A DNA stretch of 64,000 bases. Origin: Candidatus Omnitrophota bacterium. GTDB taxonomy: Bacteria; Omnitrophota; Gorgyraeia; B26-G9. This document shows, piece by piece, positions 3,842 to 64,000 of this stretch (position 1 is its first letter; every line of letters starts with the position of its first letter). The notes under the pieces were generated by a model. The model was not told the origin of the DNA, searched no databases, and saw nothing but the letters and a program-made list of their open reading frames with translations. Both the position numbers and the translations under genes were made by a program. The stretch covers positions 93,786 to 157,785 of the forward strand of contig JAZDHZ010000007.1 of the NCBI GenBank assembly GCA_043805415.1. The letters run 5' to 3'.

Positions 3842-3865
3842 GGAACTTTGTATCCTTGCAACTAG

Positions 3866-5125: not shown

Positions 5126-5128
5126 TAA

Positions 5129-9184: not shown

Positions 9185-9208
9185 TATTTTTTCCTTAACC
9201 TGCTCATT

Positions 9209-26447: not shown

Positions 26448-26550
26448 TTGAGCTCCTTCCCTATTTTTGTAATTAGCGGCGATCTTCGTCCTTGCTTTAA
26501 TAAACTTTACGAATATTTTCAGCAATTTTTTTGGATCAAGCCCTGCTTAA

Positions 26551-31098: not shown

Positions 31099-31139
31099 TA
31101 AGCTCTTCTTTGATTAAATATTTATCATTAACTAAAATA

Positions 31140-41000: not shown

Positions 41001-44000
41001 CACCCCGGCATCCTGGGCTTTTTCCCATTTTGCTTCATCATATTCTTGAGCGCTATACTTGGGAGTCATCATCAAGCGCAATGCCGGATATAAAATTGCC
41101 AGTGTCCACAAAGGCGCCGCGAACACGATAAAAGAAGCAAAATAAGAACTGGCCACTAAGGTGGCTACGAATGCTAAACCAAAAATAATATACGGCGCCG
41201 CAAAATAATTTCTGTCAAAAAATTGGCCATCTTTAAATAGCGGGACCCCGTGGGCTTTAAGCCAAGCTTGCTTACCGCGCCACATCGGACGGATATAAAG
41301 ATTTTTAATTCCGTTGAATATTCCGGAGAAGAATGCCTGATCCCACATGCTTTGATCGCGCTCTGACTTCCAGGCATCGCGCAAGGATTGAAATTTTGTC
41401 TTGCCTCTAGACTTCCACAAAGTACTGAACACACTGCCAGCACCTTTTAAAATTCCGGATTCAACTACATAGGTAAGAATATAAGGCCCAAATAACCAGC
41501 CAATCAGCGCGAAGAAATAAAGGAACCAGGTGGAAATAAGCATAGTGGTTACCGGAACAATAAGCATTGTAATCGGCAGGAGTATGGCCGCGATCTTTGC
41601 CGGCCAGGTCGCCAGGCTCTGACGGTAATATTTATTAAAATCCTCGTTCATTGTCTTAAGCCGTACTTCTTTTTCTGTGTAAAGAAATACTGGTCTGGCA
41701 TTAACCCCTTCGGCAATTCCCTGAACCACATAATGAGGAATAAGTATATTAAAGAAAATAAAATTCTTCGCGATCCCGGACAGAGTTACCCATATCCCTT
41801 TAGCATAACTGCCTTCGGATGCAACGTGTGCCCAGTAGGCAGGAAGATTAATCGCTTCAGCAAAGACAAAGCCGACAAATACCCAGAAATAAGGGAAGAC
41901 TAAGGCTAGGAACGGATTGACTGGAGCCAAAAGCCCGGTAAGAATAAGCCCGATGGCTGTAAAGGCAACCACGCATAGAATAACCAGTGGTTTTTTCCAA
42001 TAATGCCAAGCAGAAATAACTGTTCCCCATTTTTCATTCCAAGGGATTATATTACTGCTGATAAAACGCTTAAACTGGCGCCTCATAAGAAACTCCACAC
42101 TGCCGGCAGCCCATTTTGCCAGAGGAACTAATAAATCACTGAGAGACGGCGGCATACGCCATTGGAGTTTCATATATTCCACATGTCTGGTAACCATGCC
42201 GAAAAGCATAAATAGCAAAGCGCTGATCAGATCTTCAGATACATAATCATCCTGCAGCCCTTCGTATTTATACATAAAATCTCTTCGATAAACACCCTTA
42301 CCATAATAACCCAGAGTATCCACAGTTTCCTTAATCCGCATTACCGAACTCTGCCATGCCTTTTCCGCGAGTGCCAGGGCGCGTCCGATTGAATTAAGCT
42401 TTTCCACAAAAATCGTAACTGTAGTCAAAACAATCCCTAATTTGGGATTACGGTTGAATTCTGTTAAGACACGGAACATATTCGGCGTTTCTTCATAATT
42501 AATTTCAAGATGCGTATCCATACCCCAAACAATCTCACCGCGCACATAAGGCTGGGCAACAGCAGCGTCACCATATTTGGAAAAACGGATCTGATCGCCC
42601 TCAAAATCACGAATCTGCCCCTTTGGATCTCCTTTAGCAAGCATATGCGTATATTCACCATTATAGCGCTTAAAATCAAGCAGGAGTTTTCTTACCTGCG
42701 CATCACTTATATTCAGACTCTTAATATCCTCTTCGCTCATGGTATCAAAATTAATATTCAGGAATTGATCGATTGCCGGGCCTTTACTTTTTACCAGATT
42801 ATCTGTGGCAAAAAACTGGAACTTCAAGGTTACCAAACGCTGATATTCTTTGGCGGTTTGCAGATAATAAGACAGTTCATCAGCTGTTATCTGTGCTGCC
42901 TGAACAAACAGTTCTTTTTGCCGAGTATCAAGCGCCTTACCTTGCGCATACATCTGGCTTACAGCTGCCAGCTCTTTGGCTAATAAATCCGTGGAATCAG
43001 ATTCAAAACCCAGAATTCTAAATCTATTTAATATAACATCCAGCTGTGCTTTTGTTTGCTGATAACGATTATTTTGATAAAAATGCTCCACATACTCACG
43101 GTAGCGCTGGCGCATATAATGCTGCGACTGGACCCAGCGCCAGGTTGTCGGCATGCGGTAATTTACCCAATCCTCGATCATGTGAATAATTCCGTCAAAT
43201 ACTTCTATTCCCTGAGGCTGGGTTAGTTTTGCGCGAAGCTGCGCGATCTTTACATCTAAAGCTGCTTTTTCTCTAGAGCCCGGCATTGTTGAAAATAATA
43301 CTACTAATTCTTCCAGCGCAGCCTGATCAGCTGCATTGAGTTTGCCTTTTTCTCTGGTCCAATACTTCTGCAATAGAGCTATTTGGTTTTCATATTCATC
43401 TCTAAACCGTTGCGTCAGATGGTGGAATTTTGACGCCTTTTCCCCTTTTTCTATTCGAATAACCTCATCAAGAAAATAATAGTACTTTTCTCCTCCTCCG
43501 GCTAAAATAAAGATACTGAATACCGGCAGTTTTTCAAAGCCTTCAATGCCAGGCTGGAATCTAAAATAACCAGACATAAACCTGAGCAAACGCTGATTAG
43601 CCTCTTGATTTTTCGGCCTAGACAACTTCATCCGGTCTAACTTTGCTTTTACTGCTTCAGCATCAGTCATCTCATTCGCCGTGAACAGATAATCATTTCG
43701 TTCCTGCTCACTGATCTTTGCCTGTTCAAGCAGATGATTAATCGCGTCGTTCCAGACCTCAACCCTTAATTTACCCGAGAAATCTTCGACTTTCAGCTGA
43801 TTATTATCATCAATAAAAATCTTTTCAAGCCGGCCTTTTAAGCGCTCCGAACGCCAGGTAAATATTCTTCCGGTTAAAGGCGCTATCTTCTTGCTAAAAT
43901 GCACAGTCCAGGCGATAAAAAATGCGCCGATTTCCTTGATCGAAAAATAGGTCAAAGGCAAGAACAGCAAAAACGGCAGAACAGTTATAATGGCAAAACT

Positions 44001-47000
44001 AATTCCAAATCCCAGGCCAAGAGAACTGGTAAGCGAGCTGGCCCAAAGCATTCCGTAACTTCCAACAACATAACCCATAAAAATATTATACAGCACTGTG
44101 ACAATCATTGTCTGGCGCCAAAAACGTTTGGCCTTTAATGTCTTTAAACCAGCTGGGCCTTTTTCCGTGCCTTTGGTCCAGAAACGGTCTTCTTGTCCAA
44201 AATTAAAATTAGGATTATATTCAGAATTAAATTTTTCTATTCTATCTTTATATTCAGAAGGTAATAATTTCAAAAATAAATTAAGATAATCCGGCTGAAA
44301 TACTGTTACAATAAACGCAATAATCACAATCACACTCACCAATAAAACACTTGGAAAGAATAACGAAAGCAATCCACCAATAATAATCGTCGCGACAGTT
44401 GACAAAGCTCCGATAGGGCTAGTAAATTTATTCAGCCAATTAGCAACTTTAGTATTTTTAGCAATAGTCTTATTCGCCAATGACACAAACGGAACCATGA
44501 GTTCCCCAAAGAAGGCGATCCAGCCAATTTTATACATTTTAAGATATGTTTCATTATCTTTCAGGGCTTTATTCACTGCTGGTTTAAGCTTTGTATCCAC
44601 CAAATTCTGTATAAGCTCAGACGCTTTTGCCTCAGCGTCTTTGGCTTCTTTTGGTGTTTCTTTTAGCGGCTTTTTGGGAAGCGCGCCTAGTTCTTTGCTC
44701 AGATCAATATCCAGTTCTTTGATCGGGTCCTCATAATAACGGAACAGATCATCCATATCCTCTTGCCCAAAAAGTATGGTTGGATCAGCCAGCAATCTGC
44801 CGGTTACAGTAACTTCTTTCCTTCTATATCGCTCCAGCTTGCTCTGAATCTGATCAATAATAACCCTTCTCCAGAAACCAGCATGCAAACGCATCAGACT
44901 GACAATCTCGCTTTGTTTATCAACCTTATAAAGCGCATATGATTTGCGCATCAGGTAGCGAATTAATGGTGTACGACCAGATAAAGAACTGCCTAATCCA
45001 TAAGGCTGGCGATAAGGCAGCATAAACACTCTTTCCCACAGCTTAAACCGCAAAAGATTCGGAGTTTTCTCACCTTCAAAAGCCTCACTTTTCATAGCAT
45101 TCGCTTTATCCAGACCGATTAATTCAGGTTCCTCTATCTCAAATTCCTGATCATAAGTACCGCCTTGGATTTGCCTTATTCCATAAGGATTTTTTATTAA
45201 AACAGATAAAATTTCAGCCAGGCGTTCTCTGACGATACGATCGTATTCAGCTGTAAATTCTCCACGTGTATCAATATCAGCAAAATATTTATTGAGGTAT
45301 GGACTAAAAGCCGCGTCTATGCATTCTTCAATAATATAATAATCAATTGCAGAAGGGATTCTCTCATTATTTTGCAGTTTTTGGATAAGATCGTTAATTA
45401 CAGCTTTAAATTGTTCAAGGGTTAATAATCCAAGTCCTTCTTTATCATCTAAAAGGTTTTTAACAATTGAAGCAATCGGCGGAGTAAACATCGCGTCAAA
45501 GGAATCTTTTGGTTCCGGCAGTTTATCAGACAAAACTTTATTAAGTTCTTCAATACCCTTATCCGCGGCTAAAACTATCTCCTTCAGCTCAGCTATTACC
45601 TGCAGTCTTGATTCGCCGGAACGGGGCGGGGCGCGCAAAAGATCGCCTGAGCCGAAAATTGTATTAAGTATTTTATAATCAATACCCTGCTCATTTAAGA
45701 ACTTCTTTGCCTGATCAAGAGTTGCAAATCCTTTTTTCTTAAGATCATTAGCCGGCAATTCCTGAGCAAATGCCGTTGCCGCTGATATTGCTATATCTTT
45801 GTCAACTCCGGCAGCAGTCAACATTTTCTCCAGCTCTTTTTCATTTGTTCTGTTCAGCTGCTGCAGCCTTAAATTCGCATCATCATAGAAATCAGGGATT
45901 ATATCAGCAACCACAATATTATCCAGTATACTTGCCTTGGTTTCCGGATCAACTTCTTTTTTATCAAGAAATTCACCCAGAGCAGCTTCATCCATAAAGC
46001 TTTTTTCTTTGCGTCTTTGGTATACTATTTGGCTTGCTATATATTTTGCATTGGTTTCTGCCTGCGATAAAAGTTCTTCTCTTTGAGCTTCACTCAATTT
46101 ATCATCTTGCGCGGACTGTTCTATTTTTTCCTTATCAAAGATGAGGTTTACAATCTCATCTTCGTTCATGAGATTGATATTGTTCTTGCCTTTTTTCTTT
46201 GCCTTGTCTGCCTTTTTCTTCCAGACCAAGCCAGTAATAACATTAGCACCTACTAAATAAACCGCTAAAACAATAGGAATCACCAACCATGGAAAATAAA
46301 AACTAGTAAATGGAAGTCTGACTTTATAACTAAATACCTGTACAAATTTAAACCCTAAACCTTTGGGGCCAATAGTTACTTCCCGCATTTGACTGTCTTT
46401 ATCAAGATATTTTATTTTTACTCCATCGCCCTGAAGATCATCTTTCTTTTTCTGCTCGTTTGCCTGAGCTAATAATTTCTCAAATAATTTTTCGTCTCTA
46501 AACTTCTCGCCTTCTAACTTAATATGAAACAGTTCCAGTCCGCGTTTGCCCATATTGGCAGTCTGACTGATAACATTATTCTGAAATTTATCAAAATATA
46601 GCCACCAAAGCTGACTATTGATCATCTTTTTGCCTTCAAAAGGCACTGCTTTATCAGAAAAATGCTCTTTTTGCGACAATCCCAAACTCTGATGCATGTT
46701 TGCCCCTTTAATCAGCGGGCTGCCATTGCTTAAAAGCAGTGCTTTCTGTCCGCTTAACGAGGACAACCAGGAGGACAACCAGGACGTGCTGGTTTCGCCA
46801 ACTGAATCGGTAAGCACAAATGTATATGCATTCTGGTCATGAATACTATGATGGATTTCATATGGATGCCAGTTTTTGAGCCCGGCATTAAGATTATCGA
46901 TAACTTCCTCAGGATTATGTGAAGTATCATCACGCAATGTTGCCACCAGGTTCTGGCGCTCATCAAAAACATCGATTCTCCATCTGGGATCTTCACCCAG

Positions 47001-50000
47001 CATTTTCTTGGATATCTGGAACTTGATTCTGCCATCAGGATAATACAATGTTCGTACTTGAGCCAGCTTATCTTTGCGCATATCTTCGATATCATAAACC
47101 ATAGTCGCGTCAGGACGTAAGAAAAGATTTTTTGAATTAGCCCGAGGTTTAAATTTAGCTTTAAAGTCTTTAACTATCTGTTCTGTTGATAAACCGCTTT
47201 GCATTAAAGCTGGATTAAAATCAAAGGTATTGCTGCCCTGTGATAATCCCATATTTTTCTCTTTAAGATACTCAAGAAAAGTTACATATGTTTTTTCAAG
47301 CTCCATCAGCTTAATTTTGTCCTCGGGTCCTGACTGATAAGTACGGTCAACATAACCGTTAAATATGATTTCAAGCTCGCCTTTATTATTCTTGATTTCC
47401 ATCCACATCTGAAGCACTTTCGGGATATCCGCTGCATTAGCATCCTTAGGAGCAACAGCAATTGTCGCTGTCCGTTCCCTCATGCCTTTATCAAGCAGTG
47501 TGATAAATGCTTTATCTTTAGCATTGGAAGGATCTAATTGAATCTTCATTTTTCCCTCAAGACCAGCAAAGAAAGCAACCACATCCGCATCATCTTTAAA
47601 CCCGCCTGTCTTATATTTCTCATCAATCATCTTATCAACAATATCTTCCGCAGTACCCTGTTCCGTGCTTGTTATATCAATTAATTCTTTTATTAGATTT
47701 GCTCTGGATGCCGGCAAACGGAACAATACCCACGAATCTTCAAACTTTCGCTCCATCTTATCGGCTTTTGATTCATTTATTCCTAAGGCAGCGTTTTTGT
47801 CTTCAGGAACAAGTGTCTTTATAACCGCATAATCAACAGCGCCTGTTTTTCTGGCAAGATTAATTGCTTTTGAATAGTTAAACAATGTCCAGCCTTGTTC
47901 AGTTAAAAAAGCTGTTGTAACATCAGCAATTCCAAATTTACCATAATCAGTATCAAATCTTGCCCGCAATTGCATTATGCCTTTAAAAACTTTTTTAGCA
48001 TCCCAATATCCCCAGATATGATTTATAACTCTTCCCAATCTATCCTTTGTTTTGCGATAATGCACATCTGCTTTTGAGAAAACCTTATCGCCATCTCTAG
48101 TGAATTCTGATTTCCAATACTCGATTCCTTCATATTGTATACTGCCTTGCTTATCAAGATACCTATCTATGGAGGTCAGATGGTCAGCATACAATGCCTC
48201 TTTTGCTTTAGCTTCATCACTGTATCGTTTAAGCCATTTAGCTTGCTCTTTTTCACTTAGCTTATCCCAGAATTCCTGCTTTTTCTTAGCTTTAAACAAA
48301 GTTTCTTTTGCCGCAGCTTCATCACCTTTAGACTCTTCAAGTAATTTGTTTCTGTCTTCAATACTAATCGTATCCCAAATTGCTTCTTTTTCAATCTCAA
48401 TAAGCATTGACCTGCTGACTTTTTCCTCAAATAATCCGCTGCACATACCAGCAAGCTGATCCTGAGTAAAAGCCTTAAGATTAAACTGATCTTTCTTTTT
48501 ACTAGCTGCTATTATATCTTCAGCTATATATGCCGGTGAGATAAACCTGAGGATTTCTTTTTGATCGCTGTAATCTGATTTCAGAATACCCAGAACAGCT
48601 TTATGGAAATTATCAGCAACAATAGCTTCGCCGCCAGCAGCAGTTATTGCCGCGTTAAAAGCAGCGAGTTTTTCACCACTTAAAGTTTCCCTGTATACAT
48701 TTAAAGCCGCCCTTGCTTTGTCAAAAGTTGTTTCACCTAAACTCTTAAGAATGTCCGCGTTAGAGCGGAAGAAGAAAGACTCTCCTCTATTGGCAATACC
48801 AGCCGCATCCAGATCATCATCTTCAAAATAAGAAAATGACATTATATTTCTTTTGAAAGATTCGTACCTTAACGCCTTTTCCGACGTCAATAAACCATCA
48901 AATAAGATAATAATTCTGCCTTTATTATCTTTTACTTCCTGATAATCAAGGTTTCTCTTTCGTTGGTGCATATGGTAAATAACATTTCCTCTTTTATCTA
49001 TAAATTCCAAGTCTGATTTAGGCACATTTGACCCGGAATTAAACGGCGCGATCTGTGATTCTGTGATTAATGATTCTCCCTGATCAAATTCATGATTGAT
49101 ATTATAAGCAAAGTATTCTAAAAGCACATCAGTCACGGCAATTGTCAGCGCCTTCTTATCAGCTTTCAAGTTTGAAAGCTTCTCAAGTCCCGCGATTATT
49201 TTTTTGGCGTGATATTTCCCCTGTGTATAGTTTTCTAATTTAGCTTCAATCAGCTTAGCATCAGTTCCGCTGTTAATTATAATATCCACGATTTCAGGAG
49301 CAAGCTGATTAAAATCAATTTCTTGTTTTTTGTTTTCCTTGTTATCAAAATAAAAATATGATTGAGAATTAAAAGCAAGACCTAAAGCTCCTAGATTCTC
49401 CTTGTATTCATCAGGCCAGTCATAATTTAATTTAGAAACCCAAACCCAAATAAAATTACCATTAAATTCATATCCTGAATATTTAACCCGGATATTGCCC
49501 TTATTATCCTTTAAACCTTGCCATAACAGTTTACTCTTAGCATCATAGATTAAGGCCTTTACATATCCAGCATCATTAAGGTAATCAGTTTCTTTAAAAA
49601 CCTGCATGATAATATTTCTAAAATCATTATCTTTTAAACCTTTAAGCTTAAGCTTATTTAACTCTTCCGCAATGCTCTGAGCAGTAATAAACGCGTTTTC
49701 ATTGATTAATTTTTCTGTTGCCCGGATAATTGATTCATGTAAAGTTTTAAGTGTTTCAGCGTCAACAGTTAGTTTTAGTTTTTCTAATATTGGACTTAGC
49801 TGCTGCATCTTTAAATTAAGCAAACTACTAACTTTAAACTCATCTAAATTTTTATATTCATTGGTATCAAATTTCTGTAATATTGATAATGCCAGTAATT
49901 TATTTTCGCCTTGTTCCAATAAATTCATATCAGGATTAATCCCATAGTCATAATTCTTATCATATAAATACGTGCTGCCCAAAGTAGCTATATCAAATTT

Positions 50001-53000
50001 CCCCAAACGCTGCATCGCGCTTCTGATTTCAATACGCATCAGTTCTGGGTCTGTAATCCCCAGAGTTTTCCAGGCTTTGGCCATCTTTCCGGCAATAAAA
50101 TCAAATAGTCTAGGGTCATCATCATAATAGAATCTGGTTGATTTTTGCGGCACAAATATTCCATCTATTTTTTTACCGTCAATAGAAACAAGTACGCGGC
50201 CATGAGCATCTTTCACTTCTTGCCAAACAAGCAGAGTTCTCTTATTATCCAGCTCAACAATCATCTCGCCTCTATTGTTGAAATAATCGCTCAACTGTGT
50301 TCCCGCTTTGCCTTTATGCGGCTTCAGTACAGAAACTGAAACCGGCATGGCTGGTTCTTCTTTTGTGGTTTTATCAAGCAAATAAGTTTCACCGGACATG
50401 GCAAACCCAACCCGGCCCAGATCATTCATAACCTTTTCATTTACGCCTAATTCACCGAACTTATCCTGCTGATAAACATAATGGTATTTTGTTACTTTTA
50501 TCGGATAGTATTTATTGTCTTTGCCCTTCTCATAATCATATACTTTAATCGGACGCCCAAAATTATCTTTTATTTCTTCCCAGGTAAGCTGCTGTTTAAG
50601 ACGGACATTCTGTATCGAGATATTTCCCTCTTTACTGAAATAGTCTTCCACTTTAATAAGTTTGCTTGCCTTAACAATCTCGGTAAGCTCCGCTTGTGTG
50701 ATTTTAACTTGATATTTAGTCCCTAATAATTCTGTTAATGCTTTAACCGCTTCAAGAAATTTCTGCTCATCAGATTGTTCCAAAGCAGATACTTTATTTT
50801 GAATATCCCTTAATAACTCTTTATTCTCGGGAGCTAACTTTAATCCCGCGATAATCTTGCCGGCTAGTGTTTCCATGGTATTTAATGTTGAAAAAGCAAG
50901 TACTTCTGTATCCTCTTTAGTATCTTGATCATAAAGAAAAGTAAAACCATACAAAGCAATATTCCGGCGGCCAAGCTCATCCATTATTTCCTGGGATTTA
51001 CCTTCTTGAAGCTTGGGCAGCTTCTTTTCCCAAGCATCAAGAGCTGCTTTAAGTTCAGGATGCGCCTTGCGATAGTTATTAAAGCTTTCATAATCATAAA
51101 AATAATATGTTTTCTGATTCCTGAAAAATTCGCCGTTTTTCACAACTCCATCAAATTTAACCTGTATTTTTCCTGTGCTGTCTATCTGTTCCTCCCAATG
51201 GAGATTATTTAAAACATTTTTCATTTCCACAAGCACTTCGCCGTTATTATCGATATAAACATCGCGCGTCTTTTCCCGGCCCTGGACATCTCGGTAAGTT
51301 TCCTTCCTGTGTTTTTTAATCCGGGAAACCGACATCAGCGCGGTTTGCTCGTTCTTCTCCTGGTCATAAATATAGGTAGCGCCAATAAGCCCTACTCCAA
51401 ATTTTCCGTAGCGGTTCAGGTCGCTGACGAAACTATCATTAAACATATCCTGTCCGGATTTTATATATTCATCAACAACCGCTTTAATATCCGCGTCTTT
51501 GCCTGCTTTTTTCCGATAAGTTTCCAGGGTTTTCTTAAATTTGTCGCTCAGGATATCCCAGCCTAATTTTTCATATTCAATAATCAGCTGCCTGTAAAGT
51601 TCCGGGTTTTCTTTGCTAAATTGCTGAATTTGCTGCAAGCTGTAGAAAAAGCGTGAGGCCTGCGCCTTTTCAAAAACTTTTGTCTGCACATCAAGTTTGC
51701 CCAGGTACCGGATTATTGTTCTTCCCAGATTATCAATAAGGTCCTGACGGGTCATCCGCTGGTTAGCATTGGTCATCTGAACAAGTATGTTCCCCTGGTC
51801 ATCAACATAACTCTCTTTAATTTTTTCCGTATGATCTTTCTCATCAATATAAGCCTTTTTAAATTTCACCAGGAATGAATGTCCGACTAATCCGCCGGTT
51901 TTACCGGTTTTAGCATCGTAAGTATGGGTTTCTCCAATCATCGAAACACCATAAAGCCCGAGAATATCCATGTCCAGAGCAAAACGCGCTTCAATCCCGT
52001 ACTTTTCAGCAAGGTCTTTCTCATATTTGTAGTGGAATGTCGTTACTTTTTCAGGAATAACTCTTCCGGTTTGTTTATTGAATTTTCCGCTGTATTTAAT
52101 TTTTACGCGGCCATTACCGTCAATCACCTGCTCGCTGATTTCTTTCTTTTGCGCGTCTTTATTTAAGACCTGAACATTGCCGTCTTTGGTTAAATATTTG
52201 CCGTTCGCGTCTGCTTTTACCACTGAACCAGCGACCAAATCAAAAGGCACCGCTGCTTTTTCATCAAAGCTGAAAGTCGCGCCAATAAGCGCGATGTCAA
52301 TTTTCCCCTGACGATTTAACTCTGCCAGCAATTTCTCATCTTCTATATTGATATTTAAAGTGCTTAGTTCATCCTTAAGCTTTTTATAAGCATCCGGGAA
52401 TCTCTTCTTAAATTGATTCAACTGGTTAACACTATAAAAAGAGTGGGAAACTTTTTCCCGCACAAACTGCTTTGTCTGAGCGTCAATATGCCCGTAATAA
52501 TCTACTGTCTTTCTTCCCAGATTGTCGACTAATTGCTGCCATACCAGCTTTTGCTTAGGAGCATACATCTGCAGCAATACATTACCTTCATTGTCAAAAT
52601 AACGTCCGTCTTTAAACGGCTGGGCAACAGACCTTCCCACTGGTTCATCACTTACTCTTATTCCCCGGCCATTTTCAAACTTATACAAATAAGTTTCACC
52701 GACCATGGCTACACCCTGCAATCCCAAAGTGTCCATTGTATCGGGATCAACACCAAAAGCATCAAACTGCTTCCGCAGTTCCCTGGACTTGGCATCTTCT
52801 CCGCCGGGATATTCATAGTAAAAGGTGGTTTCTTTTTCCACGTTAAAACTCATACCTGTTTGTGAATCGCGGGCATCAATCTCAAAGGGCTTGTTTTGTC
52901 CATAGGGGATTACCTGCAGCCGGTTTTCTTTACCAGTAGCTTCTCCCATGCTCCCATCATACTTTTTAATCAAGCGGCCGTATTGGTCACGCACTTCCAG

Positions 53001-56000
53001 AAAACGTTTATTTCTTTCGTGGTCAATAACCAGTTTTGTTGACCATTTGGAATGTTTATCCCAGTAAACCGTATTTCCTTTATCTTTATCCGCAAGCGGC
53101 AGCACCTTTGAACTAAGCACAGGCTTATCTTTATCCCAGCGCGGTTTTTCCAATGTGCCGGTATTTACATAGGTTTTACTTTCCTGCTCTCTGCCCCATT
53201 GGTCAAATTTAATTCTGGTAACATATTTTTCATTAAAAGTCATTACCGGCAGCTCATAATCTTTATATACTTCATAAGTTACCGCTTTAGAATCCGGATC
53301 AATAACTTTTTTAATAAGTATCGGGCTCTTTATCTTTACAACTTTTCCTTTGTTTTCTTTGCTAACTCCTGCCGGATCCTCAAGGTTTTCATCATAAGAA
53401 ACTGTTTCAGTTCTTTTCAGTTCTTTTCCTAATTCAGCATCCTTTCTCACTTCACCGGAGTTGTTAATATATACCTTGCTTTCAGACTCAAGATCATACT
53501 CATTGTATTGCATTACAACAATTTTATCTTTTGTGATTACTCGCTCAAGTAAGCCGCGTTTAAAAACCCGCATTTCCCAGTCATTAGTTCTTCCGTTTTC
53601 TTCTTCGCGTATGTATTCCCGATGGAAAGGAAATTTTAAAGTAACTGTAATATCGCGTTTTTCTCCGTTAATTTCAACTGCCTGGGAGCTTTCTTTGGGA
53701 ATATGAAATACCCAGCGGTCGCGCATAATCTTCTGCATTTGGGCAGCGTCGATCTCATCATTAGCCACCATTTGTTTTATTCTATCCAGGTAATCTCCCA
53801 ACGGGTCATAGTATTGCTTTAAACTTAATTTATCTTTTTCTATTGTCAGAGAACCAACTGATTTAAAAAAATCAAAGCAAACAGCGCTTATTTGCTGATC
53901 AGTTAAGAAACCTATTGCCAACTCCTGTTTTTGAGCAATTAATTTTTTAGCCAATAGCTGCGGATCAATAGTTTTTTCTTTCATCGCCTTAGAGACTTCG
54001 ATAAAAGCGCTTATAATTTTTGATACATTCGCGTTTGGCACTGTTTCTGATTTTACACCGGTTATTCTGGCAATGCTCTTGCGAATAGCTTCTCTCTTGC
54101 CGGAGGCTATTTCTAAAAGCCTTCCAGATTTTAAATCAGTAATAATCGCTCCGCCTTCATCTAAAGTTTTGTATTGCTCCGCGGCGTTCGCCTGCTCATT
54201 TTCTCTTTTTTCTCTTGAAACTTCTATTGCCTTAGCCGGGGCGATTAAAGTAACTGTAATTAGAGAATTGTCCTTAGCATTAAGATATTGATATACACCC
54301 TTGAATATATCCACGCTGATAAGCTTATCCGGCCCATATCCAGCAGCCTGCTGTTTTAAGCTAATAACCTGTTCTTTAGCTTGCGCGAGCTTAAGCTGTT
54401 CATCAGAACTCAGCTTTCCTGCTTTGCTTTTAAGTTCAAGCCCTATGATTTCCTGGTTTAATTCTTTAACCTGGTCTTCTAAATATTTCTTTTCAGAAAG
54501 AAAACTAAGCTTTACCCACCCTTTGTAATAAGGATGCGCTGCTTTTTTATCTTCCAGTTCTTTCTTTTCGCTGTCGCTTAGTTCTTCCCCGCGGGATTTT
54601 TTCTTTAAAAGCACAATAATTCTATCCAGGGTTTTTTCATCCGCGCTTGATGCTGTGAATGTCGTACCTTTAGTGTACTGGATGATCATTTCATTGATCT
54701 GCTGTTTTGCTGAACTTAAATTTTTCTCATCTTCTTTTGTCCAGGCAGCGGGATCAATCTTTTTCCTGGACTGGAGTAAATCAATTTTTAGCTTCTGATC
54801 AATAATCGAACTGTCAAACCCTTTTCCGCTGCTGATTCCCAAAGGAACCACGGGAATGCTTTCCGCCCTGCGGATATCAAAAGGATTAACATCGCTCATT
54901 GCCAATAAAATCCATAAAGAGTTCATACTGGCCAGGGAAACTGTATGAAAATTGCTATCCTTATATCTCTGGATCTGACCGTTTACCGCGTCCTTAGGCA
55001 AGGTGCTGTCCGGGAAAAATACCCCTAATTCAGTCCGAACCTCTAAAGGCTGGAGATTTAAGAGCAGGGTTTCTGATTTTTTCCTCTGCTCCTGGGCAAG
55101 TCCTTCCTGAAACATAGCTGTATAGAAATTTGCCATTATCTTGTGCGCTTTAGCTACATGCGCGGTCATTTCCGGGGATACTACTTCCAAGCGGCCGCCG
55201 AGGCCGGGTTTATCTGTATAGCCATAACCGGAAACCTCAACAACTTTACCCTTGTTATAATGCTTTGCTTTTATTACCTTGCGCTTTTCAAGAGAGCTCA
55301 TTATTTTTTCCGCGGAGTCTTGGCCAAAAACATAAGCATTGTCTTTATTACGTAAATTATTCAGGATTTCCGGCCCCAGCACAATAACCGCCAGAGCATT
55401 GACATCTGTCGCGTAAATATCGTCTTTTTCCCAACGCGGCTTATCCTTATCAGTTGAAGTATTCCGCATACCGCGGGAGAAAAATCCCTCTTCTTTGTTG
55501 TACACACTCGGCAGCCAGTTTAATATTTTTTCCGCCGCGTCTTTATAATCATCATTACCGGTTAAATCATAAAGCATCATGAACACGCCGAACGCGTTTA
55601 TGTTTTCTTCTGTTGATTTGCTGTCAAGCTGCGTAGGCCCTTGGCGAATGCCGCCGTCTTCATCCTGTAATTTAATCAGGAACGCGCCAAGCTTTTCCGC
55701 TAATTTCAAAGCATCTTTTCCTTTATTATCCAGTGATTCGCGGAATTCAGAAACTCCTGAAGAAGAAAACCATCCCGAATCTCCTCTTCCTTTAAATATT
55801 TGGTCTGCTTTTCCTTCTCTGCGGAAATCAGCAAGCGCTTTTGTCACCTTTTCTTTTTGGCGATCAAGTACTGCCTGCCATTTTCCCGCGGGAGCATGAC
55901 GCATTAAGTTTTTAATCAGCATCGCGGCTAGCCAGTTACTGCTGCCGGCATTATAACGGAATTCCGCGATCGGTTTTTTTGCTTCTGTAAGCAGCTGAGA

Positions 56001-59000
56001 CGGGTCAATCGCGTTGCAGACTGCTCCGTTAAAACCATCTTTTTCTCCCTCGCGGAACAACCAGGCGTTATTGAGAAAATAATCCATCCATTTATCAGCG
56101 TGGTCGTTTAAGCCGGCTCCAGACAATACCATGGATCTAAGCGCCAGATCATAAGTAAATGCCATGTTAACACTATTAGTGTCCACAGCTGAATCATATA
56201 AATGGCTGATCGGGATCCCAGTCAAAGGATGTTTAAAATTCAATGTCCCGGAAAGCATGTCCCCAGGTAATTTCTGCGCCCAGATTAACGGAGCAACCGA
56301 TTGGTTTTGCTGCTGATACCTTGAAAGCATTGATTCAAGCACAATCCCGCCGTCATAACCTTTTTTAACAATCCGGCCGCCGCCCTTATCCATTAACATC
56401 ATATACTGGTCAAAAAGGCGTACGTCTACTTCAAGTTTTTGCAGCTTGCTCTTGTAGCCTTCGTCTCCTAAAAATACAATGCCTCCGGTTTTCGCGTTTA
56501 GATAATACACGCGCCGTACTGGCTGTTCATTGTCTCCTTCGGATACTACCTCTCCGATTGGAAGTAATTTCAGTTGTTCAAATTCAGTTTGGGTGTATGT
56601 TGTTACCTTATCCATCCACCATTTTTTACTAAACGGATTCGCGCTGCTTTCCATCTCAAAGGCAAATGAACCGGATGATTTAATAAACGCTTGGGTATTT
56701 TTAAGATCAAACCAGGTCATTACCGGCAATCCGAGAAAAGAAATTCCAAAAGCGCGTCTGCGCGGAATTTCCGGCGCATAGTCAGATACCTTGGGTATTT
56801 TTAGTATTCTCAGCAGGGCTTTCGCGTCAAAAGTAATCCCGACAAAGTTAGCATAGTTTGTCAAGGTATTTCCCCAGCCTTCACGAAACGCCATCATATT
56901 CACTCCGGCGCCAAGCGCGTCGTTTCCGGTAATCGCGCCGATTACTGCCATTACATTTACTTCTCCGGTTAAACTAAAATAGCGGCTGGCTAAAATATTC
57001 CGAAAAGCATTTCCTTTTTGATTAAAAGATTCATGATTCAAACGCGCCAGGTTATCCAGGATTCCTAAGCTGAACACGGTAATGGCATAATTCCTTTGCC
57101 CCTGGACATAAGCAACAAAGCTTTTACTGGCTTCATCATCCATAGCCATGGTAAGCCAAAGATTAAGGTCGGATTTTTTATTAGCTTTTTGCTCTTCAAC
57201 ATACTTGCGGAATTGCTCGTCGGTTATAGTTAGGTTTCCGCCTGAGTCTTCCCGAGTAACTTTATCCAGTCCTTTTTCAGTTCTATTCTTTCCCGGCCCT
57301 TTGGAGAAAAACAGATAACTGGAAATAAAAGTTTCCACGGTATTCTTGCTTGGCGGACCCATCATTTTCGCGCCGCTCGGCATTTCCCAGGCAGTAAAAA
57401 GCATATCATATATTAAACGCATGCCTGCTTGCGCGAAAGGTTTGGACAGCGTCGCAATAATGTTGCCGCCGATACCCAATCCGCCCAGGACATTAAGCGG
57501 CAGCATTGCCGTTTCAAATATCATACTGCGTTTTAGTTTCTTAACGGTTTTGTGGGCGTCTCTGACCGCGATCTTGTGCATTAAAGTGCCGATAGAGACA
57601 TTAAGGATTTCTTTATTTATCGCGTTTTTGCCAAACTTGATCACATCACTTTGCGACCAGTCGCCTTTTGCTTCTTTTTCCGGATTGGTTTCCAGAACAA
57701 TTACATCATGGTCAGATCTGGCATTGACTTCCACCAGCTTTGCCTGGCGGTTATAGCTGAGAAAACGCATTCTTCTCTGCTGAAGCTGACCTTGCTCATC
57801 CTTATAAAAATAATAAACATTATCAAAGCCTTTGCTCTTTTGTGCCTGCTGCCATACTTCTAAAAGTTTTTGTTTTTTTTCAGGAGTCAATTTAGATTGT
57901 TCTAATATTTTTTGAAAGTTGGATTCAAATTCAAGAAAACGCGACTCTTTATGTTTTTGCTTTTTGAAGAACTCTGTCCAAGAAGTATCATCACCAAATA
58001 TTTGCGTTATAGCTGCCTTGAGAATAGAGCCATCATTTAGTTCTAACAACGATAATTCCTTGATTAGCTCCTCTTGACCTTTATACTTTTCTCTTATCTG
58101 ATTATTATATGTTTTTATGTAATTCTGATTCAGGTTGTCACTTTGAATATAATCTTTAACCTTAACCGAACTGCCTTCTTCCTGCTCGAAAATTGCCGCG
58201 ATATACGGACTTTGCTTCATCAGCGGATTTTTGGGAACATTGCCGGCAGCATTAAACACTCTGGCTTTTGTACCAAAGGGTTCTACCCCGGATTCATTCA
58301 GCATGTCAATTTTGTTTTTCTGCGCTTCAATATCCAGGTTGCCTAAGATATTACCCACAACTTCAACATCCAATGCCCTTGATAATCCATAGCTTTTTAC
58401 TCCGGCAAGTAATTTATCTGAGGCAAATTTGCCGTAATTCAAACGATAGGCATACTTACCGCCGGCATCCTCGCCTTCAATCCAGATATCCGGATAATTT
58501 CCTGTCTCCTGATACTCCGCGATTTCTTTCGGACGGGTTAATCTTTCTCCGCGTCCGAACTGATCTCTTTCTTCAAACTGTTTTGGGAATTTATAAAAAC
58601 GCAGCAAATGCTGGACATTACTGATATCCACCACAGAATCAAAAACAAGTTCTTTGCCTTGGCTAACCGGAATGTATGGCTGGGCTCCTTTTGCGCCTTT
58701 TTTGCCAATCCATATTTCAATGTTTTTAACATTAGAAATAGTATTATTATCCACATCCTGTTTGATTAATTCATAAAGAGTGCCTTTTTCATCATTGGAA
58801 GGAATTTCTTTATTTGTTCCTTTAACATAAAAATAAATGTTTTTCTGCTCTTTTAATTCTCCCTGCAATATAGGATTTTCCGCGATCGCGAAACGTCCTA
58901 CTTTTTCTACATTAATCAAAAGTTGGACGATTGCCTTGGCAAGGCCGCGTTCGTAATTGCGCTCCGGAGTTAAAGCAGTGGGAGAATATATTTTTCCAGG

Positions 59001-62000
59001 AGTTACTTTATCCATCAGCTCTTGGATTCGACTCGCGAACTTATCATCTGATTTAGCGGATATCACAGGAACAGCCGCTGGAGCTGCTCTTAAATTTTTT
59101 TGCTTTGGCGGTAATGGAGGAGGGCCTATTTTTTTACCGCTGTCTATGCCAGGATTCTCGCGTGCCTGCGGCGTCATTAACGCGGCAACATCTTTGTCAA
59201 TATTTAGTGTTAATTCCTTACCGATTACTATCAGCGATCCTTTGATCTTTGAATCTGGATGCTGATTATTATAAATTTCCCGCAATTTTATCCAAAGACT
59301 GGCACTGCCGAATAATTTCTGGGCCAAGCCTCTAAGTGTATCACCCTTTTCAACCACATGTTTCCACTGTTTTTGCTGGAACTCACCAGACTTGGCTTCA
59401 GGAGTAGAAACAGCTAATTGCTTTGCTTCAGGAGTTGATGTATCTAAAGAAACAACTAATTGCTTTGCTTCGGGAGTCAGTAACGCCGCGATTTCTTCAT
59501 TAATGGTTAAAATAAGGCTTTTTCCTAAAATAATCGTTGTGTCTTTGATGGGATTTTCCGGATGCTGCCGGTTGTAAATTTCTTTAAACTTTATCCGAAG
59601 ATCTTGATTGCCGAAAAATTTTTGGGCAATTTTAGAAAGAGTATCGCCTAACTTTACCTCGTGAATTATTCTCTTGCCAACTATGCCATTTACTTGTACA
59701 TTTAACTCTGCGGACTTTGTTCTTTCTTGGTTTTCTCCCTCTACTCCCCCGGCATCAGTCACTACTACTTCTTTTTTAGATATTTTTGCTTTAGCAAAAG
59801 GCCCCACAGGTGCTTGCTTATCGCTTTTTATCGTGGTTGGAGCGGTTTTGGCCAGGGCCTGAGCACGCTTCTCTTCGCTGTAATTAGCGAGCTGATGAAG
59901 ATTCGCGCCAAAAACTTTTTCCGGGTCATTAGCTTCAATGTTAAGAAAGTCCTGATAATTTTGTTCCTGATTTTTATGATTAATCTTTTTATCTGATTCG
60001 CGCATTTCAAAATGCAGATGGTCATTTATCAGATCCGCGGCATTGCCAGTCTTTCCTACCCTGGCAATCGGCGTATTCCAATTAACTTTATCCCCGATCT
60101 TTACCAGATTTTCACTATTATGCGCGGCTGTCGCATAAAAATACGTCTTACCGCCTTTGCTATTACTTACTTCGTGCCTGACAATAACCAGATTCCCATA
60201 ACCCGTACCTTCTCCGGCAAAAATAACCTCACCAGGCGCTACCGCATAGGCAATCTGGTGACTTTCTTCCCCTGTCTTGCCTGCTATCTGCGGCATATTA
60301 AAGTCAAACCCCTTGTGCTCGCGCGCACCCTTTCCTCTGGGAGCTCCGAACCCGGATACCGGGGTGGTTGTATATTTGCATTTTATCGGCAAACGGAACT
60401 GCTGCAGGAACTGCTCTAAAGGCGTGGCACTGACAATTCCCGCTAATATGTCTATTTCCGGAGTTTTGATATTAAGAGGCTGCTGCTGAGTATTGATTGA
60501 AGCCAACATAAGATCAGGCTTCATTGCCTGAGCAGCTAGGTCAGTATAATGCGCTTTGATTGCTTCCGGCAGGTTTTCTTCAAGTTTTACATTAGCAGTA
60601 TTATACGGCTTTTGCGCGTTTTGGCTATCTGATGCTGCTGCTAAAGTCGGCACAGAAGCAAGCATACTTGCTCCCATAAACGGCATAATCGAAACCTGTA
60701 AAGCTTTGGTAAGTTTTTCCGGATTTGTGGCAATACCCAATAATCTATTTAATCCCACCTTAGCCAGATTAAGCTCAACCAATAAAGCAGTGACTGCTTT
60801 TCTAAAAGCAGGACGCTGCTGAGCAGTTAAAGCCTCAGCAGGAATCTTGGCAACCATATGCTTTATTTCAGCGCTGGAGAAAAAACTGCCGTCATTGGGG
60901 CTGGAATTCTGTACCGCGGTAAGAAAAGTCCGCAGCATTTTGTCTTTTTCCGCCATGCCGTTCAGCAGATTATAAGCTAAATCAGTGGGATTGTGGGAAC
61001 TTGCTACCTCTTGTTTAAACTGATTAATAACTATACCGATATTATCGGAAAAGTCACTAAGTCCCACATTATTCAGCTGAGACTGTATCCCGGAAAAGTT
61101 TTTTAGTTTATGTTTAGCCAAAGACGAATAGTCTGTAGGGGTTTTTGAAATTTTTGATATAAACCGCTTGGAAATAAAAGTAAAACCGCCGGCCAAAGCA
61201 ATAAGCGGCAGCAGAGCAATTAACTTTGCCCCTAATATCGGAACTCCTACGGTAATCAGCGGAGCAATCCATCCGCCGACAAATAATAAGGCTAATCCCA
61301 TAATCGAACCAGTAGTAATCATAACCATTCGGGATTGAAGCGCGGAAGCGCGAGCCATTGACATAAGCGTAAATATTGTTTGCTTAGATTTTTTTGCTTT
61401 GCCGTCAAATCCAACTTCCTGCCTAGCAATTTTCCGCGCGGTAGAATATTGCGCTTTAAAAAACATTATCCCTTGTAAAGAAAATAAGCCGGTAACTAAA
61501 AGTCCAACCGCCTGAAGCAGGCTGCTGCCCTGCATCACTCCGGTACTCATAGCAATTCTAATTGAATCAAATACCTGAACTCCCAGAAGCGGAACAATGC
61601 CTAAAACAATCGCCGCGCTGGCAGCGATTCCGGCAACAAATCCCAGCAAAGGAACCCAGCCTTTAACCGCGATATTATCACTGCTGCGGGCAAATATTTT
61701 TCTGGCGATCAGCATACTCACCGCGATCGCGGACATGCCGGCAATAACCGGCAAACTAAAACTTCCGCTGGCAACAAAACCAAAAGCATACAGACCTAAA
61801 GTAACTAAAGAACCAAAAATTCCACCTTGGAAAAATCTTTTCGCGCTAGTCATCGGCAGCATGGGAGCGGATTTTAAATCTTTACGGCTGGTAAACAGCA
61901 AGAGAGTTGATGAGATTACCCCGACAACCCCCAATACTGCTGATGCCAGCAATACTGTACTTCCAATACTCCCGGTAATAAGCGTTGCTGAACCAATATA

Positions 62001-64000
62001 GGAAAAAAGCGTCATTGCCGCGACAAAAGGAGCAAAAGAAGCAGTTGTGGTAAGTGTTTTTCGCCAAGCAGTTAATCCTACTGTTTTTCCAATATCTTTT
62101 AAAGACTGCCGATGACCAATAGCAATCGCATCAGCCATTTTAGTGATCGTAGAATCAACTTGCGATAATCTTTTTACTTGGGAATTAAGCGCCCAGCCAA
62201 TCATTACTGCCCCGATAGTCACCGCCACCAAAACAACCGGGCCTAAACCAAGAAACAAACTAACCGCGCTGCCAATAACCGGCAAACCAACCGCGCTGCC
62301 GACACCGCCGATACTTAGAGCTTTAAATACCACCCCGATTAAAACAGCAAGCGCGATATTTGCCGAGATCGCGACTGAAGCAGGAATTATCTTTACAGCT
62401 AATAATTTCACGCGTTCTGAAAAAGGAATTCGATTAATTTTCGCGGCTTCTGCTTGAGCTTGATTCATCTCTCCATCTGTCGGAGCTTGCTGAGCAAGCT
62501 GAAAAGCAAGCCCAATAACATTTTTACCCAGATCATTTGCTGTATCTTGTTTCGTCTGTTCAAAAGCAGCCGCTGTTATCCGCTTGATTTCCGCGTAAAT
62601 CATCTGCGGCCTTATAAACTGTTTCTGATATCCGGAACGTGAAGATATTTTCTCTAATCTATGTTTTTTCCATTCAGATTCACTTAAAAACCGCATCCAT
62701 TTCTGATCAACAATTTCTAAAGCGCGGTTTTTAAGAATATCTTCTATAATCGCGAACAAAGCTTTTTCCAGATTGTAATCAGCAGCTTCCAAAGCGCTAT
62801 TTATTGTTTGGGCTTCTATATTACTTAATCCAAAGTCATTGTTTAAAATTTCATTTATGATTAATTCATATTGAATTTCCTGTCCAAGATCAACTCTATC
62901 ACTAATCGCCTGAGCGATTTTTTCCTTGATTGATTCAATAACATTTCGCGGGATGCCCAGCGCCGTTAAATCCCCAGTAACTATGTTTCTTCTAAACATT
63001 ACATGCTCTCTGGCAAATCCTTGACCTTTGCCCGCGCCGCTGGCCTCTTGCCACAAGAACTCACCAAAAGATTTTTGTTCTTTCTCCATGTTCTGTTTAC
63101 TATCATTAATACTTTTTCGAATTGCCGAAACAACCTTCTGGCTCTGATTAGCTGACTTAGGATCATTAGTCATGATAAACGTATGCGGCTTACCAACACT
63201 AACCTTGCTGGTTAAATAAGCTAATTTCTCGGAAATAAGCTCTTTATAATTTAAAAAATCTTCCGGCGACCAGAACCCAAAAAAGAAACCTTCTCTGCCA
63301 TCTCGTCCGCTGCGGCCTCTTAACTGAATATCTGTTTCTTCAGAGGCATCGGCACTTAATGACATAACCACCATTTTATCGCCTTTAAAATCAACTCCGC
63401 GTCCGGATATATTAGTGGATACAATAATTACTTTACTATTTTTAGAAAGCTCTTCGACCTTGTCTTTTAACATTTTTGTATCTGAAGTGGCTTCATGATT
63501 TTTAGAAACAAATTCAATAATAACATTGTCCACAGCATTATCCGCGATCAGCGAATCCAAATCATCCAAAGTCACATTTTCAATTTCATTGCCTTTTGCA
63601 TCAGTAATCTTTCCCTCCTGAGTAATCCGCGCGATATTCCGCCGCGCCATGGCCGGTTTAGCCAAAAGTTTATCCGTAAAACTTGCTACCTGATTTTCAT
63701 CATCACAGCGGACAAGTACAGCTCCGGCTTGTTCAGGAAGTCCCCAATCAGACATTTTCCTTGTCGCGCTTTGATCTGTCTTTAGAACAACTATCGCGTC
63801 AATCGCGTTTCCGATTGACTCTTCTTGATCAGAACTCAGAATAATCTGTTCTTTTCTTTTTGAAACCTTATCTAATCCGCTAAGATCTTTAAACTCTAAT
63901 CCATAATTATCAGCTGTCTTCTGTCCAATGGTAGCAGAAGCAGCGCTAATTCCGGAAACAAGCCCCAAATTATCACTCAAAATTACCGGCAAAATCATCG
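38025..64000 (-). CDS. Giant multi-domain membrane protein, 5'-partial (at least 8,657 codons in the window; N-terminus lies beyond the window end)
   Basis: A single open frame from the window edge to TAA (plus 38025-38027). The frame is open at 63998-64000 and the first recognisable domain is only the second half of a SecA-type motor, so the listed Met (MILPV) is not the true start. Domains are listed as separate sub-features. Confidence 0.85.
   Translation of the reverse strand, partial: [8657 protein letters not shown]
40880..42050 (-). other. Giant ORF: hydrophobic block following the GT48-like core
   Basis: [146 protein letters not shown]. The arrangement (TM block / GT core / TM block) mirrors Fks1 topology. 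Confidence 0.55.
42050..43640 (-). other. Giant ORF domain: divergent GT48 (Fks1 / callose synthase, 1,3-beta-glucan synthase)-like cytoplasmic core
   Basis: Collinear motif matches to yeast Fks1 as I recall it. P6795[12 protein letters not shown] vs [35 protein letters not shown] vs [33 protein letters not shown] vs RKFKFLVSM. KGDPKGQ...R7153[28 protein letters not shown] vs [47 protein letters not shown] vs LHYGHPDF. VS-E7255[20 protein letters not shown] vs [23 protein letters not shown]. The Fks1 QCGKGRD motif is not conserved (KLQWRMP). Confidence 0.6.
43895..44535 (-). other. Giant ORF: hydrophobic block preceding the GT48-like core
   Basis: [101 protein letters not shown]. Confidence 0.55.
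46900..53650 (-). other. Giant ORF: ~2,200-aa region of degenerate YD/RHS-like repeat modules
   Basis: A recurrent module: Y.D..GN.LV.M......L.W(Q/E)(E/Q)(L/I/V).D..GR.I..Y.G......F......F.Y ... G..(A/M).(G/S)(E/A)TY(L/I)(Y/F)D. Examples: [113 protein letters not shown]. Confidence 0.5.
54875..56175 (-). other. Giant ORF domain: alpha/alpha-toroid-like (glycoside-hydrolase- or prenyltransferase-repeat-like) domain, paralogous to 16279..~17350
   Basis: [12 protein letters not shown]..., [12 protein letters not shown] (QW-motif-like), [49 protein letters not shown]. It is collinear with the C-terminal domain of the 650-aa PilZ protein. Confidence 0.55.
59199..59663 (-). other. Giant ORF domains: two LysM-like peptidoglycan-binding repeats joined by a TPEAKQL micro-repeat linker
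   Basis: LysM1 (59502-59663): [19 protein letters not shown]...[26 protein letters not shown]. LysM2 (59199-59366): [19 protein letters not shown]...[26 protein letters not shown]. Linker: [29 protein letters not shown]. Confidence 0.7.
59990..60370 (-). other. Giant ORF domain: M23 (LytM-type) metallopeptidase
   Basis: HxxxD motif H-KGF-D (His at aa 1228, nt 60315-60317). '[10 protein letters not shown]' core. HxH motif DHLHFEM (nt ~60003-60023). Confidence 0.8.
61150..62420 (-). other. Giant ORF: first hydrophobic block (roughly a dozen predicted TM segments, not formally computed)
   Basis: aa ~527-950 are dominated by long G/A/V/L/I runs, e.g. [78 protein letters not shown]. Confidence 0.6.
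63204..63998 (-). other. Giant ORF domain: divergent SecA-type motor, NBD2/helicase-C-like half
   Basis: aa 195-204 [10 protein letters not shown] vs the SecA motif [10 protein letters not shown]. aa 225-237 [13 protein letters not shown] vs SecA [13 protein letters not shown]. The following [10 protein letters not shown] matches SecA SRFYLSLED. Confidence 0.7.

Follow-up and report, generated by a model that had tools for sequence, protein, structure and literature searches.

A giant open reading frame (ORF) in a 64,000-nucleotide stretch of Candidatus Omnitrophota DNA (assembly GCA_043805415.1, contig JAZDHZ010000007.1, positions 93,786 to 157,785; the whole stretch is referred to here as the window) encodes an apparently intact M23 zinc peptidase domain followed by two LysM domains, and this cassette is the first unit of the variable part of the protein, standing just past a conserved core of a SecA-like ATPase, ten predicted membrane helices, a soluble linker, and a weakly hydrophobic segment. 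The explanation preferred here, with chances that appear about even, is that the cassette is a periplasmic module, tethered to the inner membrane, that grips and cuts the wall of the cell that makes it. Giant genes of Omnitrophota are a recent and poorly understood discovery, with nearly all of their sequence unannotated. The cassette is one of the few spots in such proteins for which a biochemical activity can be proposed and tested, on a fragment of ~420 amino acids (aa), and the boundary between core and passenger offers a handle on how the giants cross membranes and on whether they act on their own wall or on that of prey.

The giant ORF encloses the interval that had been singled out in an earlier sequence-only reading of the same DNA. 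Its first codon lies 2 bases from the window end with no stop upstream, which places the N-terminus outside the window; residue numbers are therefore window-relative, with residue a beginning at window base 63998-3(a-1). Judged by the orthologue L004, in whose reading frame window residue 1 is residue 578, ~545 N-terminal aa lie outside the window, and the full protein would be about 9,200 aa, among the smaller members of the Omnitrophota giant class. The parts of the protein on which the argument depends are the following.

38025..63998, minus strand: giant ORF, 8,657 codons in the window
63252..63473, minus strand: C-terminal half of a SecA-like ATPase (Helicase_C / P-loop_SecA, aa 176-249, motif QLRGRSGRDG)
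61167..62411, minus strand: hydrophobic block by Kyte-Doolittle, aa 530-944 (415 aa), 40-75% identity in relatives
60702..61166, minus strand: conserved soluble linker, aa 945-1099 (155 aa), with a start rich in lysine and arginine (K/R) and no known domain, predicted cytoplasmic
60621..60701, minus strand: weakly hydrophobic, conserved, signal-peptide-like segment, aa 1100-1126, proposed as an eleventh crossing with N-in/C-out orientation
59979..60392, minus strand: Peptidase M23 domain (LytM-type, M23B spacing), aa 1203-1340, from Pfam, alignment, and model
60315-60317, 60303-60305, 60120-60122, 60018-60020, and 60012-60014, minus strand: key M23 codons for H1228, D1232, H1293, H1327, and H1329, respectively
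59493..59684, minus strand: LysM domain 1, a YgaU-like variant, aa 1439-1502
59370..59492, minus strand: linker with TPEAKQL, TPEAKQL, and TPEAKSG, of low confidence in the model and containing a short DNA duplication
59190..59369, minus strand: LysM domain 2, aa 1544-1603, followed by a proline-rich spacer

Peptidase and LysM domains

The sequence-only reading had described an M23 endopeptidase ~250 aa after a hydrophobic block, with HxxxD at H1228 and HxH in DHLHFEM, and this description holds. Pfam recognizes Peptidase_M23 (PF01551) over aa 1227-1340 (E 2.3e-17, 63.4 bits against a cut-off of 28.7, profile positions 2-95 of 96), the domain begins ~259 aa past the block and ~78 residues past the weak segment, and the motifs read HKGFD (H1228, D1232) and DHLHFEM (H1327, H1329). 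According to the Csd3 structure paper, the zinc ligands of such enzymes are the histidine and aspartate of HxxxD and the second histidine of HxH, the first histidine of HxH is catalytic and positions the nucleophilic water, and the three-residue spacing in HxxxD is of the M23B type (PMC4356371). Alignment with 16 database M23 proteins (17 sequences in total) shows that all invariant columns are kept, including the zinc ligands H1228, D1232, and H1329, the catalytic H1327 (first of HxH) together with H1293 in the 'AHN' strand, the GYGN strand, and E1331; the metal ligands are thus intact, as had been proposed.

The M23 domain has pLDDT values of 74-96 in an AlphaFold2 model of aa 1191-1610, which was built with 66 sequences. 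Foldseek comparison with the PDB returned only M23/LytM folds, with a probability of 1.00 for LytM and EnvC, a TM-score of 0.80 to the LytM domain of EnvC (4bh5), and a TM-score of 0.72 to LytM (2b13); further matches include DipM, ShyA, Csd1-3, and lysostaphin. By sequence the domain is divergent. Its best PDB match is TagE (E 4e-5) and it reaches no NCBIfam family cut-off, the nearest families being those of the housekeeping M23B proteins DipM, ActS, NlpD, and MepM, at scores far below their cut-offs. The M23 domain of the window is real and apparently intact, and its residues suggest that it is enzymatically active. Recent transfer of the domain was considered because of its GC content at third codon positions (0.457, vs 0.33-0.41 in the rest of the ORF), but the value comes from only 138 codons and was not taken as evidence.

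Both of the LysM-like repeats in the sequence-only reading are also confirmed. The first exceeds the Pfam cut-off for PF01476 (E 3.7e-7, 30.4 bits against 20.9) with a partial match over aa 1446-1474 and profile positions 1-23 of 43, and the second is recognized through its 50% identity to the first (E 6e-23); there is in addition a weak LysM match to the YgaU-type model PRK11198. Each copy forms a beta-alpha-alpha-beta unit in the model, with pLDDT of ~73-84, where DSSP assigns strands at 252-257 and 304-309 around helices at 264-272 and 275-288 in one copy, and strands at 353-358 and 405-410 around helices at 365-373 and 376-389 in the other. The pair belongs to the wall-binding domains, with putative binding of peptidoglycan or of chitin-type glycans.

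The micro-repeat reported between the two LysM domains is present as well, with TPEAK at aa 1508, 1522, and 1532, the third copy reading TPEAKSG. Direct reading of the codons reveals a near-identical 24-nt duplication encoding TPEAKQL within 59379-59483, although Tandem Repeats Finder did not report a TPEAK repeat. The inter-LysM linker has pLDDT below 50 and is unconserved, with 22% identity to the orthologue, which argues that the micro-repeat is a product of local slippage and not a functional motif. The match of the sequence features, from hydrophobic block to LysM pair, is far beyond chance.

Right after LysM 2 lies a proline-rich spacer, GPPPLPPK (59120-59150, minus strand, aa ~1617-1625), which reads GPPPAIAK in the orthologue and may be an extended linker leading off from the wall-binding module. 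The ~7,000 residues of aa 1604-8657 (38025-59189, minus strand) contain no significant Pfam match beyond aa 1605 and no internal repeats by self-BLAST, and PDB sequence searches with aa 1601-8657 gave no match. Conservation with L004 and L005 extends to parts of this region, such as aa 2329-3042.

Membrane anchor and placement of the cassette

The first 250 aa in the window are the second half of a SecA-type ATPase, with Pfam matches to Helicase_C (E 6.6e-7) and, weakly, to P-loop_SecA; NCBIfam adds weak SecA matches. Only this half is seen since the ORF is cut there, and SecA_DEAD and SecA_PP_bind are present in L004 and in another relative, L001, upstream of the point that matches the window end. 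Giant Omnitrophota genes have been described as having 'numerous transmembrane regions' and 'divergent secA DEAD helicase domains' (West-Roberts et al. 2023, 10.1101/2023.11.21.568195), an architecture confirmed in a 2026 preprint (10.64898/2026.06.07.730766), and on these features the giant gene probably belongs to the SecA-fused giant membrane proteins of Omnitrophota.

A Kyte-Doolittle scan of the giant protein finds hydrophobic segments at aa 530-944 and then only beyond aa 5893, where a second cluster of membrane segments extends over aa 5893-7705; the ~4,300 aa after the cassette are without a strong hydrophobic segment. The first of these regions is the very hydrophobic block that had been estimated at ~420 aa, and the multi-helix membrane anchor proposed upstream of M23 is borne out. 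The block reads as ten membrane helices arranged in five hairpins, with the K/R-rich connecting loops on the ATPase side. Pairwise alignment with L001g gives five conserved helix pairs in which the turns are very short or uncharged, and the K/R-rich loops lie between the pairs, at aa 604-652, 703-723, 768-780, and 849-888, with a K/R-rich tail after aa 941. An alternative count with three helices in aa 537-603, which flips the topology, was rejected, as it would put four later K/R-rich loops and the start of the linker outside, 34 K+R in all.

With ten helices in the block, the placement of the cassette comes to depend on the weak segment. Its sequence, EKLTKAL-QVSIMPFMGASMLASVPTLAAA-SD (aa 1094-1126), is present in L004g, L001g, and P0121, and it is rich in lysine at its start, contains a short hydrophobic core and a proline, and closes on Ala-x-Ala (LAAA/SD), which brings aa 1100-1126 nearer in appearance to a signal peptide than to a membrane helix. 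The best stretch of 19 residues in it has a Kyte-Doolittle value of 1.47 and a crude Hessa-scale sum of +5.3, vs -1.1 to +3.7 for the ten block helices, and AlphaFold2 rendered most of it as coil at very low confidence. Either reading of the segment, as signal peptide or as helix, gives an N-in/C-out orientation and hence a cassette on the outside. When the ten helices and the weak segment are taken together, the ATPase-side loops hold 39 K+R in 213 residues vs 4 in 76 on the other side, a strong positive-inside signal that would put the cassette outside the cytoplasm if the weak segment crosses. The positive-inside analysis thus sets the cassette opposite the SecA-like ATPase and not in the cytoplasm, the placement that the sequence-only reading had named as contrary to its view.

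M23 and LysM families act on peptidoglycan, outside the cytoplasm. The cassette is probably outside the cytoplasm, provided that one marginal segment crosses the membrane, and this placement agrees with the extracytoplasmic substrates of both families and with the simpler arrangement in P0124, a giant protein from another Omnitrophota metagenome-assembled genome (MAG). The hairpin pattern and the segment at aa 1100-1126 are both conserved in relatives.

Relatives and the putative target wall

When aa 480-1620 were run with HMMER against the full set of 1.84 billion representative proteins, only two proteins came out below E 1e-30, both of them fragments that match the membrane block and linker, and both named by NCBI as Candidatus Omnitrophota MAG proteins. 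Four relatives carry the NCBI name Candidatus Omnitrophota and one GTDB-representative relative is labelled uncultured Planctomycetia; the window itself is without rRNA or tRNA. Scans of genome and metagenome contigs yielded three relatives of the core: L004 (contig Ga0180007_10000218), the closest orthologue, which is collinear (60.6% identity over aa 1-1967 and 54% over aa 2047-3196), L005 (44% over aa 1-1160), and L001 (40% over aa 147-1177). A word-indexed search with aa 501-1620 returned nothing, words from the hydrophobic block having swamped the candidates, and those with a narrower query and with a profile of the Omnitrophota-type cassette gave only generic small M23/LysM proteins; they did not recover P0124 and are uninformative on the frequency of SecA+M23 proteins.

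The alignment with L001g extends to aa 1177 of the window protein and that with L005g to aa 1160, ~35-50 residues past the weak segment. The conserved core, made up of the SecA-like ATPase, the ten helices in five hairpins, the 155-aa linker, and the weak segment, therefore ends there, and the M23/LysM cassette is the first unit of the variable part. In a local hmmsearch with M23 and LysM profiles that included L001g and L005g, the cassette was found in the window protein and L004g only, at the same place in both; its domains are 39-53% identical to those of L004, vs 22-27% for the linkers. Homologous cassettes occur in P0124 and in the fragments P0123 and P0125, with a common HEV..YFY insertion and an IYN.Q.P..PIK variant of LysM. 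P0124 (MCG2711626.1, 2,503 aa, partial) has a SecA-like domain without an N-terminal signal, then one hydrophobic segment that is clearer than the weak segment of the window protein, then M23 and LysM. At the HxH motif (60012-60020) the window reads H-L-H, vs C-V-H or C-L-H in the L004 orthologue, P0124, and P0125, and these relatives may be inactive or use a different mechanism.

If the cassette is a periplasmic module that acts on the producer's own wall, the SecA-like ATPase would come first, in the cytoplasm, and the ten helices would hold the protein in the inner membrane. The chain would then return to the cytoplasm for the conserved 155-aa linker and recross via the weak segment, so that the M23B zinc endopeptidase and then the two LysM domains would be the first folded units beyond the membrane, followed by ~4,300 aa without a strong hydrophobic segment. 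The LysM pair would grip the sacculus and so fasten the giant protein at its base, while local cleavage of peptide cross-links by the M23 domain would make room for it. Omnitrophota genomes encode peptidoglycan synthesis (10.64898/2026.06.07.730766), and a cassette held ~78 residues from the membrane would, if uncleaved, reach the producer's own sacculus and not another cell. The same distance puts it at the periplasmic face of the inner membrane, if uncleaved, and not 'presented at the cell surface' as the sequence-only reading had suggested. That reading had also offered two targets, digestion of a neighbour's wall or remodelling of the producer's own to insert the protein; the anatomy makes the own wall the likelier target, although an obligatory role in insertion is disfavoured by the absence of the cassette from two family members.

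Several observations weigh against action on the producer's own wall, or against the topology that it presupposes. Among the candidate crossings the weak segment ranks last in hydrophobicity, and two prolines lie within it; if it did not cross, the even helix count would leave the cassette in the cytoplasm. The AlphaFold2 model of the membrane block (aa 501-1180, four sequences) has a pLDDT of 45, at which the helix count is untrustworthy, and topology predictions for giant Omnitrophota proteins have been noted as unreliable (10.1101/2023.11.21.568195). Orthologues open with a signal-anchor-like helix just before the SecA_DEAD domain (L004 ~2880-3010; P0122 residues 7-36; L001 5813-5920), in a region outside the window where the sequence ...AAGGDLRWL after the helix is conserved in L004g and P0122; such a helix, if it spans the membrane N-in, is hard to square with a simple cytoplasmic ATPase. 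L001g and L005g have no M23 or LysM in at least 3,300 residues after the equivalent segment, so the cassette is not a fixed requirement of the family. Cysteine replaces the catalytic first histidine of HxH in L004g (residues ~1860-1866 of its frame), P0124, and P0125, and catalysis may therefore not be the conserved function. Together with the published view of a prey wall as the target, the last two points tell against a strictly required role.

The strongest alternative, though on the unlikely side, is an offensive enzyme that is exported or cut free and digests the peptidoglycan of prey or host in predation or episymbiosis. It matches the hypothesis published for giant genes, which is prey adhesion and cell-wall digestion (10.1101/2023.11.21.568195), and the window flanks are of published types, including two GH2-like glycosidases, an MFS sugar importer, and a pilin-like protein. 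Presence in some family members only is as expected of exchangeable weapon modules, the AxA-type end of the signal-like segment could be a cleavage site, and the structural matches include secreted M23 enzymes, lysostaphin for one. However, a membrane-proximal position ~78 residues from the anchor is the worst place from which to reach across the producer's own outer membrane, and a Pfam scan found no releasing protease domain in the giant protein. The nearest named families are housekeeping M23B rather than M23A bacteriocins, and the catalytic histidine is gone in close relatives.

A rather doubtful proposal concerns the core itself, in which the SecA-like ATPase, the five hairpins, the linker, and the AxA-ending signal-like segment would form a cis-acting export device with an exchangeable passenger, and M23 with the two LysM domains would serve as a wall-opening pathfinder for the next at least 4,300 aa. 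Signal peptidase might then cut at LAAA/SD, freeing a passenger of ~7,500 aa.

It is improbable that the cassette is a non-catalytic wall anchor or regulator like the LytM factors EnvC, NlpD, DipM, and ActS, which would bind peptidoglycan or activate an amidase while the LysM pair fastens the protein. In structure the domain comes closest to the LytM domains of EnvC and DipM, which are non-catalytic, and in NCBIfam to DipM, ActS, and NlpD, while C-x-H in the orthologue and in two further cassettes from Omnitrophota suggests that this lineage can do without catalysis; yet the window copy has three zinc ligands and both catalytic histidines, residues of the kind that known LytM factors have lost, and the fold ranking that puts EnvC above LytM is close. 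Least probable is a cytoplasmic cassette behind a segment that does not cross, which could meet peptidoglycan only if the protein were delivered elsewhere. In its favour, the ten block helices are even in number, the weak segment is the worst candidate by both hydrophobicity scales and mostly coil in AlphaFold2, and published topology predictions are called unreliable. Against it, the substrate lies outside the cytoplasm, the weak segment combines conservation with the kind of charge asymmetry seen in N-in/C-out signals, and in P0124 the cassette follows a clearer single hydrophobic segment after a cytoplasmic-type SecA domain. A module tethered in the periplasm and acting on the producer's own wall remains the preferred explanation.

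Genomic surroundings and comparison with known systems

The other genes of the window that bear on the giant gene or stand near it are listed below.

37540-37899, minus strand: PilZ-domain gene immediately downstream of the giant gene
16279-18231 and 12626-13009, minus strand: two more PilZ proteins
35160-36432, minus strand: AbiEii-type nucleotidyltransferase toxin gene (E 3e-28) and an overlapping small upstream ORF without a Pfam match
26830-34715, minus strand: two large proteins between the giant gene and the sugar-uptake genes, one of 1,422 aa (no Pfam match) and one of 1,191 aa (HEAT repeats, weak DUF218)
13263-13937, 20150-21439, 23063-24955, and 25008-26525, minus strand: pilin-like protein whose N-terminus bears a methylation motif, a pair of GH2-like TIM-barrel glycosidases, and an MFS_2 sugar transporter
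722-11277, minus strand: four tandem radical SAM/SPASM paralogues, then a 1,351-aa protein with an N-terminal ABC ATPase, an ABC-2 permease, and a flavin amine oxidase

Genes around the giant ORF are of ordinary chromosomal kinds, including a family 4 glycosyltransferase, ABC transporter parts, and the AbiEii toxin, and its relatives belong to Omnitrophota MAGs; an origin from a phage or plasmid was rejected on these grounds. An exact look-up of the glycosyltransferase among public contigs had no hit, so the source genome is absent from that collection. Secretion or pilus genes and carbohydrate genes have been reported near giant Omnitrophota genes (10.1101/2023.11.21.568195), and the pilin-like, GH2-like, and MFS_2 genes of the window belong to these flank categories. 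A PilZ gene is also found near the P0124 giant gene in the other Omnitrophota MAG (L002 356-733), and the recurring PilZ genes may indicate a link to c-di-GMP signalling. The AbiEii pair, ~1.6 kb downstream of the stop codon of the giant gene, looks like a type IV toxin-antitoxin system, and the radical SAM/SPASM cluster looks like a cluster for peptide modification and export.

Among known systems, the closest class is that of the Omnitrophota giants. Like them, the window protein is encoded by one very long ORF, has many membrane helices behind a divergent SecA-type ATPase, is mostly without recognizable domains, is flanked by pilin-like, glycoside-hydrolase, and sugar-import genes, and has relatives from Omnitrophota MAGs. 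It differs in length, its at least 8,657 aa being below the 10,000-aa and 30,000-aa thresholds of the preprints, and in the order of ten-helix block, linker, signal-like segment, M23, and two LysM domains, which is undescribed in those preprints. Their main texts mention neither M23 nor LysM, nor does one supplementary file of the 2026 preprint; a 2025 paper lists LysM among the domains of such giant proteins. The nearest individual protein is P0124, which NCBI names 'peptidoglycan DD-metalloendopeptidase family protein, partial', and which likewise has a SecA-like N-terminus, a membrane segment, a homologous cassette of the same variant type (35% identity over 287 residues), and a PilZ gene nearby. 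In contrast to the window protein, it has one hydrophobic segment instead of ten plus one, a SecA part closer to canonical SecA, one recognized LysM copy, a long insertion, and C-V-H in place of HxH.

The module also resembles the M23 DD-endopeptidases MepM (YebA) and ShyA, known as 'space-makers' in wall growth, which are membrane- or periplasm-located and likewise combine a membrane anchor with periplasmic M23B and LysM-type domains, the HxxxD and HxH motifs being intact. Foldseek matched ShyA structures as well, and MepM is one of the weak NCBIfam matches, but the order of domains is reversed here, with M23 before LysM, and the module is a small part of a giant and not a protein of ~400-440 aa. 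Scores fall well below the NCBIfam equivalog cut-offs (30.5 vs 341 bits for MepM; 16.8 vs 700 for ShyA), and the module is, by analogy, similar to these enzymes in function without being a member of either family. The LytM factors EnvC, NlpD, DipM, and ActS provide the best fold match (EnvC, 0.80) and the best NCBIfam families, and LysM with LytM also occurs in NlpD and DipM. Such factors are defined by lost residues, as in Csd2 (PMC4356371), whereas the window copy keeps all five metal and catalytic residues; the C-x-H relatives are nearer to the LytM-factor state.

A peptidoglycan hydrolase domain in or on a large wall-crossing structure is a feature of trans-envelope machines and phage tails as well. 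FlgJ, VirB1, and TagX are wall-opening hydrolases on trans-envelope machines, and the fold matches of the window domain include the M23 domains of phi29 gp13 (3csq) and the cyanophage A4 pre-ejectosome (9k2v). These are secretion or injection machines and not one membrane-anchored polypeptide, so that the likeness is a functional analogy, with the sequence relation limited to the M23 fold. M23B and LysM domains are ordinary, and the class of the host protein has been known since 2023. Three points appear to be new: a conserved core of SecA, ten helices, linker, and signal-like segment gives way sharply to a variable passenger; in one sub-lineage the M23/LysM cassette is the module with which this passenger begins; and relatives differ, H to C, at the catalytic position.

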